DNA of 64,000 nt from Lachnospiraceae bacterium (GCA_023663945.1 JAMPGL010000015.1:214-64213), one strand, 5' to 3'. Counted from the first letter of the stretch, positions 58,908 to 64,000 are shown. A program made the numbers and translations. The notes: generated by a model not told the origin, from the sequence alone.

Positions 58908-59627
58908 ATGGTGATGAGAAAAACAAATGAAAAAACAATGGATACAGCGGTGCAGATATTGCTGAGTATTCACAAGGGGGATCAGCGGAGCGTAAAGAGG
59001 CTTTGCACTCAAAATGTGATGTGGAGATGCGGAGGCTGTTACGGGAGCGGTGCGGAGGATAATACGGCTATCCGCATTGTTACGGATCTGATAGCTCCGG
59101 AGACAGTCAAAAGATTTGTCCGGTATGGGCAGTATGTGAAGCATCTGCATGGAACCGGCAGAATTGTAGCGGGCAGGTATCAGATTGAGTATGCATCGGG
59201 CATGTCGGTCAGGACGAAGGGATTTGAATATACGATGGTGCTGGCGGACGGGATTGCGGAATTTATACAGATTGATTTTCAATATATCCCGGTAAGGGTC
59301 TATCAAATAACCGCCGTTAATGAGGCGGTCTACTGCCTGAATGAGCGGGAGGTACTCTATGTGGAAGCGGTGAACGACCGTATTCTCTGGCACTGCCAAA
59401 GCAGGGTTGTGGAAGCCGTGGATACGTTAAAGCGCCTGGAGCAGGAATTGTCGGAAGAGTTTGTGCGGGTACACAGGAGCTACATTGTAAATAAAAACCG
59501 GATCCGGAGTATTCAGCGGTGCAGCGTGACCATGTCCAATGACTGTAATATCCCGATACCTTACAAAAAGTATGTGAGCGTGAGGGAAAAGCTGATGTGT
59601 CATTCGCCGTCCCGGACAGGTCATTAG
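58908..59627 (+). CDS. LytTR DNA-binding domain protein with non-receiver N-terminal domain
   Basis: C-term EVLYVEAVNDRILWHC..TLKRLEQEL..FVRVHRSYIVNK..IPIPYKKY; N-term lacks receiver Asp motifs. Confidence 0.85.
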   Translation: MVMRKTNEKTMDTAVQILLSIHKGDQRSVKRLCTQNVMWRCGGCYGSGAEDNTAIRIVTDLIAPETVKRFVRYGQYVKHLHGTGRIVAGRYQIEYASGMSVRTKGFEYTMVLADGIAEFIQIDFQYIPVRVYQITAVNEAVYCLNEREVLYVEAVNDRILWHCQSRVVEAVDTLKRLEQELSEEFVRVHRSYIVNKNRIRSIQRCSVTMSNDCNIPIPYKKYVSVREKLMCHSPSRTGH

Positions 59628-59722
59628 GGAGAAATTGTGGAAGGAACCCGGGAGATTTTTTATGATGGAGCCACGCTTTAGCTAAAGAGTATCAAATTTA
59701 ATAATTTCAGGAGGGACAAACA

Positions 59723-60241
59723 ATGAGTGATGTAAATGCATTAGCAGGAGTAGATTTTTCCTTGATCGGAACCAAATTACATGCGGTATACGAAAAGAAA
59801 AAAGACGGGTATTCAATACTGCTGATTCCTTCGGCTCAAAATGCGGACGAGGCCGTAAATCTTGGACAGGTTGTTGAGGACATCAAGAAGCTGACAGCCG
59901 GAAGCAAAGACCCGGTGGATGCAGGCGGACTGACGGATTCACTTGAAAAGAGCGTTGCCAGTCTTGATGACAGCGGAAGCAAAAAGGGGCTGGATGCGGT
60001 AGAGATTAAGCTGGGAATGGCGTACCTCTATATCAATTCGGAAGACGGAAAGGATCGTACTGTGGAGTATGCGTTTCAGATGACCATTATCACGGAAGGC
60101 TTGATTCCGGAAGCGGTGGCAAAGATTGTTGACGTGTCAAAAGTAGCAATCGCAGTATGGAATACCAACCGCCGGAAGGTTATCGATGCGATGGCGCTTG
60201 AAACCATCGAGAGCTATTTAGAAGTACCGGCGCAGGCATAA
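59723..60241 (+). CDS. Hypothetical protein (172 aa)
   Basis: RBS CAGGAGGG; clean ORF; no family recognised. Confidence 0.8.
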   Translation: MSDVNALAGVDFSLIGTKLHAVYEKKKDGYSILLIPSAQNADEAVNLGQVVEDIKKLTAGSKDPVDAGGLTDSLEKSVASLDDSGSKKGLDAVEIKLGMAYLYINSEDGKDRTVEYAFQMTIITEGLIPEAVAKIVDVSKVAIAVWNTNRRKVIDAMALETIESYLEVPAQA

Positions 60242-60264
60242 CGGCACAGGCAGGAGGAGCAGAG

Positions 60265-63200: not shown

Positions 63201-63441
63201 CCGCAGTCTTTATGTAAATCCGGATGGAAATCTGGGGAAGGTGGTCACCGCGGTAGAAGAGCAGATGTATCGGACCTTTCCGGTAGACCGATCCGGCAGC
63301 CGCCTGATCAATATTTCCAGAGAGCAGAAGATTCGGGAGAGCTTTGAGGAGGCGGAGAAGCATTTGAATATTAAACCGGATCAGTATGTGCTGGATATGC
63401 GCAGCCGGGGACGGAAGGGATCTTATCAGAACAGACTGTAA
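60265..63441 (+). CDS. Large hypothetical protein (1058 aa): beta-rich N-region, coiled coil, hydrophobic helical segment, helical C-region
   Basis: RBS AGGAGGAG; uninterrupted ORF; no signal peptide evident. Confidence 0.85.
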   Translation: MESTKVLCSVSAEGAILSCPAKIEIAKGPDGLIFGGIIAWDGKKISDALDLGENSKLSENVSGYVDSLLPDCKPKELSFLWKEDKMYVSVADEGAIFRLAKISDEAAILFVFQIGKKSVPKAGETANLTDQLKKVMSLFGIKEFWFYAQTGSRWLLPEMKCGEIGNSAPVEIRKCKFFTYAQIEFPEGSPLGKGIRSLFDIERTELYLGADSDNFVGMISLPEIQTKYVKSTDMSMHMQFGKNLEFLLEGSFEFSMLQGIQFRLKCGVSNSAFELSAAAHMEKPFYLVDALSIGDTCLMFRIGKGIELGMYSTLYLNRIAIFGAVMLKETGPSFVPEMISAALINELTINSLLSALTGKDIKANADIDFIKIKGLNFQEMPPFDKEKIAERDVKYTAETFNHHVDCKALALDPEQIQLTNYKEGTDLADLKRTRHYFIDKDGNIQLSAQFYYASVNTRLGDYIVEQGLFFCGVLEILKARFEVLFSWRKSDECILAYARVEPINLGFLEIGSSGLSSKESGGIPIAENSVMAQFVDLRKEGMVFFLSASKSDVSFYFDGMVNILNMLKVQARILFVRGLISLDICTNLGSILKVSLHLRAAYQNFNSGAFQFCLIVDTTGLAEKMKNFTNRVNAAVRKLKDKIDNANRELTRAQNHVNELYSQIRSLDRKIDACKREISSASWWKKAFIAIGKGIEIGAYEVAKIGIYAAIGIATATLETARAVVNFAGKLGTCVLNAVNAVIRGAMSLFYINYVKLEIDADKQGTDFCAEMEVVLLGKTYTIRSNVKKSAISGSDPTGALERAINSDSQISNDIDKIEQAANRSNWRKYQHDEYTVEENKRNLREAVDQIEGSVFMMQSMQESYMEQFCVPMEEFDAMNLSMTDALAQTENILNTGTQASKLKELDETVEKLRKLADEPLEEMGRNGEQLSAVKESIEKYDKANDLYKEINLVMEKIQKSRTEALDYNQKLHDEEEQNRSLYVNPDGNLGKVVTAVEEQMYRTFPVDRSGSRLINISREQKIRESFEEAEKHLNIKPDQYVLDMRSRGRKGSYQNRL

Positions 63442-63486
63442 AGAACGATAAGAAATGAAATTACTTTTGAAGCGGAGATGAGAAGC

Positions 63487-64000
63487 ATGTGGGAGAAATT
63501 CCAAAAACTCCGGGGGGTGATGGCGCTGCTGGCTGCCATCACATCTCTGGCAACCGGAACAATCCGCCAGGAAGGGATCGATGTGAGGACTTATCCTCCT
63601 GCAGCGGAAACAGGCTACTGTACGGTTTTGATTTACATGGATGGAAGCGATCTGGAAAGCGGTTACGGATGTGCGGCGGCGGATTTGGAGGAGATGGAAA
63701 AAGCACTGAACCAGATTGACAGCGAAAAAGAAATACGTGTTGTGGTGGAAGCCGGAGGAACCACGGAATGGAGCTATGAACCGATGAAAGGTATCCCCTA
63801 TGGGCGGTTCTGTCTGACCAAAGATATGGACGGGGTTCAGGTGGAGGAATTGGAAACGCGCAATATGGGAAGATCCGACACGCTTGCAGACTTCCTGAAT
63901 TATGGGATCGGGTCTTATCCGGCGGAGCATTACGGATTGGTGTGCTGGAATCACGGGGAAGGGCAGATTCAAGGATTTGGATGTGACCTGAACTTTGATG
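63487..64000 (+). CDS. Clostripain-family (C11) cysteine peptidase, partial (runs off the window; not in ORF track)
   Basis: Open frame from ATG 63487: signal-like N-term, TVLIYMDGSDLES, VVVEAGG, NMGRSDTLADFLNYG..YPAEHYGLVCWNHG. Confidence 0.88.
   Translation, partial: MWEKFQKLRGVMALLAAITSLATGTIRQEGIDVRTYPPAAETGYCTVLIYMDGSDLESGYGCAAADLEEMEKALNQIDSEKEIRVVVEAGGTTEWSYEPMKGIPYGRFCLTKDMDGVQVEELETRNMGRSDTLADFLNYGIGSYPAEHYGLVCWNHGEGQIQGFGCDLNFD

Follow-up and report, generated by a model that had tools for sequence, protein, structure and literature searches.

In gut Bacteroidales, two-component CDCL pore toxins as well as BcpT are activated by surface proteases of the C11 (clostripain) family (PMC11169675, PMC9308784), and large toxins devoid of signal peptides have been found to exit their producers by release that depends on wall hydrolases or lysis (PMC10847048, PMC10516005). 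A gene module recalling both themes was analyzed at the 3' end of a 64,000-nucleotide stretch of DNA from Lachnospiraceae bacterium (GCA_023663945.1, JAMPGL010000015.1:214-64213), which as a whole is termed the window in the following. The module consists, in this order, of an orphan LytTR regulator, a protein of 172 amino acids (aa), a protein of 1058 aa and the start of a C11 protease. The 172-aa and the 1058-aa protein, hereafter the small and the large core protein, are an obligate pair. Tentatively, with a probability of roughly 0.4, we read the module as encoding a bacteriocin-like membrane toxin, which would be made in a subpopulation of cells, set free when these lyse and processed to maturity by the protease.

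With the CDCL-L/CDCL-S and BcpT systems (PMC11169675, PMC9308784) the module has in common that it resides in gut commensals and on mobile DNA, that a large protein is combined with a small partner, and that an outward-facing C11 activator cutting after Arg or Lys, proven there, is proposed here. Unlike those toxins, the core proteins display neither fold nor sequence signal of MACPF/CDC proteins and possess no signal peptides; the protease gene is part of the operon, while those of Bacteroidales reside at separate chromosomal sites, and the hosts are monoderm Firmicutes. Colicin-type operons are similar in that a cytoplasmic toxin candidate is accompanied by a small acidic partner and a downstream release function, with expression in some cells and a mobile, patchy distribution, but they differ in their unrelated proteins, in the Gram-positive hosts and extra protease found here, and in the upstream position of the small gene, to which an immunity role is putatively ascribed. 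An earlier note on this DNA had instead invoked fragipain as a C11 protease activating a co-encoded toxin, which was imprecise, as the fragipain gene is not known to be adjacent to bft; CDCL/BcpT activation by surface C11 proteases is the better precedent. Overall, the module stands outside the CDC/MACPF, gasdermin and known-toxin-domain families, and no holin was found; the core protein families are new, and the logic we infer for them varies that of known protease-activated, lysis-released toxins.

All four open reading frames (ORFs) that the earlier note had described 3' of the ctpA terminator are present and co-oriented on the plus strand (Table 1), each with a GGAGG-type ribosome-binding site upstream. 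The intergenic gaps amount to 95 bp between the LytTR and the small gene, 23 bp between the small and the large gene and 45 bp between the large and the C11 gene, for which an alternative in-frame ATG exists at 63478. It was likewise correct that no terminator separates the last three genes, since neither a terminator scan nor the folding of intergenic RNA, which performed no better than shuffled controls, detected one. Besides the hairpin that closes the upstream ftsE-ftsX-M23-ctpA cluster and forms the left edge of the island, only one other plus-strand site was returned by the scan, a weak 5-bp stem within the large gene (61978-61994). The operon also runs past the window end, as had been proposed, because metagenome contigs bearing the locus extend about 5.3 kb beyond position 64000.

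Table 1. Coordinates of the features of the module in the window and, where a locus handle is given, in related loci.
Feature	Location	Strand	Remarks
Intrinsic-terminator-like hairpin with T-run	58625..58661	+	16-pair stem, then TTTTTGTGTG; terminator scan
Conserved non-coding box GTCATTGACCGGAAATTGCGGAA	58739..58761	+	5' of LytTR gene; repeated at 59620-59642
LytTR regulator	58908..59627	+	239 aa; PF04397
Second box copy GTCATTAGGGAGAAATTGTGGAA	59620..59642	+	overlaps LytTR stop codon; 5' of 172-aa gene
12-bp palindrome CTTTAGCTAAAG	59675..59686	+	LytTR-small intergenic region; invariant in four-locus alignment
Small core protein gene	59723..60241	+	172 aa; no family match
Large core protein gene	60265..63441	+	1058 aa; nothing above family cut-offs
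Beta-meander, residues 8-617 (predicted)	60286..62115	+	antiparallel, >30 strands, near-uninterrupted; DSSP on AlphaFold2 model
Helical hairpin, residues 619-749 (predicted)	62119..62511	+	arm 1 basic coiled coil; arm 2 hydrophobic, Gly/Ala-rich (WWKKAFIAIGKGIEIGAYEVAKIGIYAAIGIATA...)
Linker, residues 820-835	62722..62769	+	low confidence, pLDDT <50; before C-terminal helical domain 837-1050
C11 protease N-terminus	63487..64000	+	171 codons, runs off window; PF03415
Inverted-repeat loci	L010:9147-9344, L017:9188-9359, L020:9176-9352, L023:4434-4676, L025:9150-9344, L029:9049-9326, L015:1371-1735		recombinase-small intergenic region
C11 loss comparison	L016:13285-14173 vs L001:13187-15370		clean C11 deletion; small and large genes kept

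For the comparison with other genomes, ORFs were called on 41 fetched loci and searched with locally built hidden Markov models (HMMs), resulting in 27 non-redundant loci. That the genes are real is shown by full-length homologues at 28-66% identity, present in more than 27 non-redundant loci. The small gene was located directly upstream of the large gene in all 26 non-redundant loci other than the window, and in distant clades the stop codon of the former and the start codon of the latter abut or lie within about 5 bp. A C11 gene follows 3' of the pair in 18 of the 22 loci with enough downstream DNA, so that the trio seen by the earlier note was recovered by synteny across genomes. Its supposition of an undescribed system also proved sound with regard to the core proteins: both are uncharacterised, with no Pfam or NCBIfam match above cut-off. 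In a collection of 5.8 billion proteins the large protein is represented by 32 clusters, all of full length, at 40-66% identity and carrying no name or 'hypothetical' only, while a profile search of 1.84 billion representatives with the large protein retrieved 266 relatives at E<=1e-3. The small-protein family comprises 38 clusters. A scan of 185,579 species genomes revealed 30 loci at 28-59% identity to the large protein. A distant large homologue of 1238 aa (P0107, L042:231-3947) possesses a 190-residue N-terminal extension that aligns colinearly, if weakly (13 bits), to the small-protein HMM, and no separate small gene was found upstream of it, the 230 bp there being AT-rich and non-coding; this suggests a natural small-large fusion.

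Pairwise identities between loci are correlated for the large protein and C11 (r = 0.93) as well as for the large and the small protein (r = 0.92; 136 pairs), and as these identities co-vary, the small, large and C11 genes were inherited together. It could nevertheless be assumed that nothing but a gene neighbourhood is seen, in which the pair has one function and the C11 and LytTR genes are independent and merely travel in the same island. The C11 gene is lost or absent in 4 of the 22 informative loci with the pair intact, LytTR is confined to some clades, and a recombinase gene splits the large gene from the C11 gene in L006. Other points oppose this: in 13 of the 18 loci with a C11 gene, which range down to about 30% identity, the gene has the same place and orientation, the gaps measuring 6-50 bp; its divergence tracks that of the large protein; and terminators are lacking between the genes of the window. 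We regard a mere neighbourhood as quite unlikely. A conserved 'fourth gene' after C11 was considered and rejected, the downstream proteins (222-367 aa) being non-homologous across clades.

The large protein matched no Pfam or NCBIfam model at curated cut-off, and searches of PADLOC, PHROGs and PDB sequences yielded only weak coiled-coil matches, those to the PADLOC 2.0 defence models (e.g., LeoBC, E = 8e-4; LmuB, E = 2e-3) all falling within residues 620-730. Pfam scans of its long distant homologues (1238-1935 aa) disclosed no extra domains. It has no signal peptide, no transmembrane segment (maximal 19-residue Kyte-Doolittle mean 1.48) and no lipobox, sortase motif or wall-binding domain. 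An AlphaFold2 model built from 32 sequences (predicted local distance difference test, pLDDT, 73.9; predicted template modelling score, pTM, 0.43) comprises the beta-meander and the helical hairpin of Table 1, followed by three further predicted strands (residues 751-787) and a helical domain (790-1050). In this model 31 of 35 strands are predicted to be amphipathic, the two faces differing in hydrophobicity by 1.5 Kyte-Doolittle units or more (face means +2.2 and -0.7). Conservation within the protein peaks in the second hairpin arm, which does not qualify as a classical transmembrane segment. The beta region was also compared with itself for internal repeats, and none were detected, the two high-probability matches being 11-residue overlaps between the compared slices.

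Foldseek against the PDB placed the ApoB100 beta-belt on top (9ea7, E = 1.8e-4; others to 7e-4; 9coo_A, probability 1.0), followed by LptD and porin barrels. The ApoB100 matches reach TM-scores of 0.09-0.13 at a root mean square deviation of 23-60 A, and therefore only local strand geometry is common to the belt and the large protein. Foldseek of the model against BFVD gave nothing useful. Relatedness to the ClyA/Mak/Hbl toxins was also looked for; the models reached 12.6 bits for MakB (cut-off 240) and 8.6 bits for MakE (cut-off 360), with one helix each, and ClyA (4pho) stayed below threshold with E ~1 and a TM-score of 0.07 to the large-protein model. For the Gasdermin and MACPF/CDC families, neither core protein gave a Pfam or NCBIfam match or a significant Foldseek match. 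The label 'membrane-active-like', which the earlier note had attached to the large protein, was not an observation; hydropathy reveals no transmembrane segment. The amphipathic sheet, the hydrophobic hairpin and the weak ApoB100 match of the predicted fold are compatible with a lipid or membrane-surface role.

The same features could be taken to indicate a non-toxic envelope or lipid-handling structure, an ApoB-like coat or carrier, for instance of membrane vesicles or of a phase-variable surface layer, in which the hydrolases and the protease would remodel the envelope for exit. Besides the ApoB100 belt as best fold match (E = 1.8e-4 to 7e-4) and the amphipathic strands, this would accord with the inverted-repeat promoters present in seven loci, phase-variable promoters in gut bacteria typically controlling surface structures, and with BspA-type leucine-rich-repeat (LRR) surface proteins adjoining the module in three loci. 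The TM-scores, however, reflect strand geometry alone, the large protein lacks all of the secretion and anchoring signals listed above, and the family is rare and patchy (about 30 of 185,579 species representatives), therefore an accessory trait rather than a housekeeping envelope function. A coat or carrier of this kind seems to us rather improbable.

The small protein is acidic (isoelectric point 4.6), has neither a signal peptide nor a transmembrane segment and matched no known family in Pfam, NCBIfam, PADLOC, PHROGs or PDB sequences. Its AlphaFold2 model (pLDDT 66) shows the predicted order beta-beta-beta-alpha-alpha-beta-beta-beta. No significant match to the model was found in the PDB with Foldseek, where Gasdermin-E and pneumolysin appeared only at E>=0.39 and probability <=0.06. 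That it might be a paralogue of the large N-terminus was rejected, as hhalign detected no similarity, though the order of secondary structures is alike. In overall plan the module resembles gasdermin-protease systems, with a beta-rich N-terminal and a helical C-terminal part, a flexible linker and an adjacent clan CD cysteine protease; it differs from them in the missing fold match (best was Gasdermin-E, E = 0.39, probability 0.06, with the small protein only), in a large protein four times bigger and in a protease predicted to be extracytoplasmic.

Within the window, 174 residues of the C11 protease matched PF03415 with 44.7 bits (cut-off 25.8; E = 2e-11), and the complete orthologue in L004 with 147.7 bits. 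The catalytic His (WNHGEG) is encoded at 63952-63954. The position of the catalytic Cys is past the window end and reads MDACLM in L004 and in the 95%-identical copy in L008, an incomplete locus that is 95-99% identical to that of the window. As the dyad aligns to the C11 structures 6n9j (WSHGDG, FDACYM) and 6mzo, it is, judged by alignment, intact. All 22 C11 homologues begin with a stretch rich in Lys and Arg, after which comes a hydrophobic segment of some 12-20 residues, and the window protein shows the same arrangement, a basic N-terminus and then a hydrophobic part that is either a signal peptide or an anchor, for which reason its catalytic domain is predicted outside the membrane. Since the core proteins carry no such signal, any processing must follow their release. 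Conserved arginines of the large protein occur in predicted loops, among them Arg432/434 (LKRMRH, residues 430-435) and, within the disordered linker, Arg824. Of the sequences, 84% have Arg at position 824 and 96% either Arg or Lys, which makes the linker a candidate site for an Arg-specific protease.

A feature missing from the earlier account is the presence of peptidoglycan hydrolases beside the module in at least 11 loci. By Pfam they belong to at least five unrelated families, i.e., GH24 phage lysozyme, GH25, Amidase_2, M15/VanY with SH3 and an endolysin-like domain (ELLD), and additional NlpC/P60-like domains with choline-binding repeats lie just under the Pfam cut-off. The eight GH24 or composite enzymes with inspected N-termini, as well as the GH25 and M15 enzymes inspected, have no signal peptide and begin at the catalytic domain. 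That different lysins were recruited independently suggests that breaching a wall is functionally required. Type 10 secretion, C. difficile TcdA/B with TcdE and the Yersinia entomophaga Tc toxin (PMC10516005, PMC10847048) offer a parallel, as there, too, a large signal-less cargo is accompanied by signal-less phage-type wall hydrolases, which for the present module are seen in the loci of relatives, and as the regulation suits expression in a subpopulation. The module differs from type 10 secretion in that no holin gene was found in the loci and that the hydrolase family varies by locus.

Signal-less hydrolases without an adjacent holin also suit a device acting from inside, an anti-phage (abortive-infection) or programmed-lysis module, since something else must then carry them across the membrane: the pair would damage the membrane of its own cell through the hairpin, like a giant holin, and let the lysins reach the wall, the role of C11 being secondary. 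Defence-type neighbours fit this idea, such as DUF4231/SLATT-like and HD-CE proteins (L009), TIR proteins (L034), AAA_15/AAA_21 ATPases (L011) and HipA with Fic (L006), as does the Ruminococcus pair on a recombinase-rich mobile element that is viral according to IMG/VR. Yet PADLOC returned no more than the coiled-coil matches given above, and tblastn of the large protein found no match in 50,697 phage or 72,556 plasmid records, an absence from phage genomes that speaks against it. Further, the most constant accessory is a protease predicted to be extracellular, for which an internal trigger would have no need, and phase-variable promoters are unusual for defence systems, which need to be ready in every cell. 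We hold this alternative to be unlikely.

As to regulation, orphan LytTR regulators of toxin or bacteriocin loci are represented by CdtR of C. difficile and HdrR/BrsR of S. mutans. The regulator of the window agrees with them in a LytTR domain without an adjacent kinase gene, immediately 5' of the presumed target operon, and differs in its N-terminal 135 residues, which are neither a receiver nor any other known domain, and in the lack of an adjacent membrane-inhibitor gene. Its LytTR domain (residues 141-229) matched PF04397 with 66.2 bits (cut-off 22.6; E = 3e-18), no Response_reg match was obtained, the NCBIfam models LytR, AgrA and BtsR covered only the C-terminal domain (residues 136-229) far under their cut-offs, and no kinase ORF is present within 58600-64000. 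Orthologues hold the same position in L004, L005, L008 and L012. The claim of the earlier note that LytTR is part of the system is supported insofar as such regulators recur in at least five arrangements, upstream (window clade, L027), between the large and the C11 gene (L033), downstream on the opposite strand (L009, L021), as a short upstream gene (L031) and as an agr-like regulator and kinase pair (L006); LytTR is, however, not a universal core component, its place being taken in seven relatives by a probable invertible promoter.

In the window, a 23-bp box of the form GTCATT-N5-GAAATTGYGGAA precedes both the LytTR gene and the structural genes, and is near-invariant in loci whose proteins are 59-66% identical. 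Its 12-bp core GAAATTGYGGAA occurs in exact copies only twice in the 64 kb, both times at this locus. The first copy is a candidate LytTR operator for autoregulation, which is suggested by the same box standing in the promoter of the regulator and of its target, and the second a candidate operator of the structural operon. The palindrome CTTTAGCTAAAG showed a weak RNA fold. In the seven loci with inverted repeats a tyrosine recombinase gene (270-296 aa) is situated directly upstream of the small gene, and the repeats, with a cross-species core AATACAATATT / AATATTGTATT, flank 118-331 bp of the intergenic region, and are likely to constitute, together with the recombinase, an invertible, phase-variable promoter. 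An inverton in the window itself was rejected, since neither a recombinase gene nor the repeat core was detected near the locus.

If the module encodes a protease-matured membrane toxin, the regulator would turn the operon on in a subset of cells, and a complex of the small and large proteins would build up in the cytoplasm, in which the former serves as chaperone, co-subunit or inhibitor. The complex would exit through local wall hydrolysis or lysis of the producer, whereupon surface C11 would cut it after conserved arginines, Arg824 in the linker and the LKRMRH loop (430-435) being the candidates. Cleavage would free the part composed of beta-sheet and hairpin, which might then insert into or coat the target membrane. 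The proposal of the earlier note, a regulated, protease-activated apparatus for membrane targeting or lipid handling, hence stands in part: the unit is conserved and a membrane-surface role is plausible, but neither LytTR nor C11 is present in every locus, and given the topology release must come first. A bolder version, which we consider doubtful, would see here a new class of membrane attacker, a giant single-chain amphipathic beta-sheet that is kept inactive by its helical C-terminal domain and the small partner, freed by self-inflicted wall hydrolysis, unleashed by a surface clostripain and switched by phase variation or LytTR.

Several observations weigh against a protease-matured, lysis-released toxin. 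Exactly the C11 gene is gone in L016, which is otherwise syntenic with L001 at about 80% nucleotide identity and has the pair intact, and no C11 gene was found within 10 kb in the Ruminococcus clade, where the pair is likewise intact; C11 is dispensable for keeping the small-large pair. The nearest complete relatives of the window differ in that L012 has a GH25 enzyme and L004 no hydrolase, and the sequence of the window stops short of the expected hydrolase position. No holin candidate, defined as a plus-strand ORF encoding 45-260 aa and two or more hydrophobic segments, was detected by the hydrolases in 21 loci, except for an LrgA/LrgB pair in L034. There is no obvious membrane immunity gene, and the gene 3' of C11 varies by clade. 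Unlike polymorphic toxins, the large protein is conserved evenly over its whole length, and it showed no fold or sequence link to a known toxin, with all Foldseek TM-scores <=0.13 and a model pTM of 0.43. Finally, the sequencing runs that hold the locus are metagenome assemblies only, with no RNA run among them. The L016/L001 pair may also be viewed as a natural experiment on the need for the protease.

The genomic setting could be deduced from L012, which shares the flanks of the window in the order ftsX, M23 peptidase, ctpA, LytTR, small, large, C11, a 367-aa protein, GH25 lysozyme, uvrB and uvrA; the module thus forms an insertion in the midst of housekeeping genes, and the island of the window sits between ctpA and, by synteny, uvrB. 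In other species it was met in unrelated contexts, including cobalamin genes, capsule genes, HipA/Fic genes and a recombinase-rich element. Its occurrence is rare and patchy over Lachnospiraceae, Enterocloster, Clostridium and Ruminococcus, with changing surroundings that include recombinases; we see in it a chromosomal island of gut Clostridia that moves horizontally. Cultured carriers are [Clostridium] clostridioforme AGR2157 (Enterocloster), Clostridium sp. DSM 8431, Ruminococcus callidus ATCC 27760 and Lachnospiraceae bacterium JLR.KK009.

Further observations concern the surroundings of the module. The region 5' of the island in the window (54407-58587) encodes ftsE, ftsX, a coiled-coil M23 peptidase and a CtpA/CtpB-type S41 protease with PDZ domain, i.e., ordinary cell-division and envelope genes. 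The Ruminococcus version (L043:431-9000; L037 is R. callidus ATCC 27760) resides on a mobile element classed as viral by IMG/VR, the cargo of which includes two or three large serine recombinases, an amidoligase, a GGACT enzyme, a tyrosine recombinase and an IS21 helper, as well as a secreted BspA-type LRR protein with dockerin and, just 5' of the small gene, a conserved 133-aa gene of unknown function. In L006, from a roe-deer rumen Lachnospiraceae metagenome-assembled genome (MAG), the gene between the large and the C11 gene encodes a tyrosine recombinase (13210-14031, minus strand), and a GH24 lysozyme with SH3 and then the agr-like pair of LytTR response regulator and kinase are found downstream. 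In L034, a Ruminococcus MAG, the pair is present without C11 and followed by a 523-aa protein of unknown function and the LrgA/LrgB-like membrane pair (14379-15435, 17538-19061); two small proteins further downstream are probably the source of the TIR_2 matches in the pooled neighbour scan, and the surroundings look like a defence or cell-death island. A gene pair homologous across three loci (L023:12046-13545, L025:17853-19327, L029:16491-17974) lies 3' of C11 beside a protein with endolysin-like domain and is probably the source of five DUF2589 matches in the same scan.

Lachnospiraceae and their relatives dominate the healthy gut, yet only a small number of protein weapons or lysis systems have been described in them. 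As cultured carriers exist, the module is directly testable. If it is a protease-activated toxin or a lysis device, it would add a new effector class to gut competition, and two families of 'hypothetical proteins' would receive a function. The theme of C11 proteases activating toxins would then extend from Bacteroidales to Firmicutes, and, should the doubtful case of a new class of membrane attacker hold, gut commensals would possess a Gram-positive weapon or lysis device without homologue among the known pore formers.

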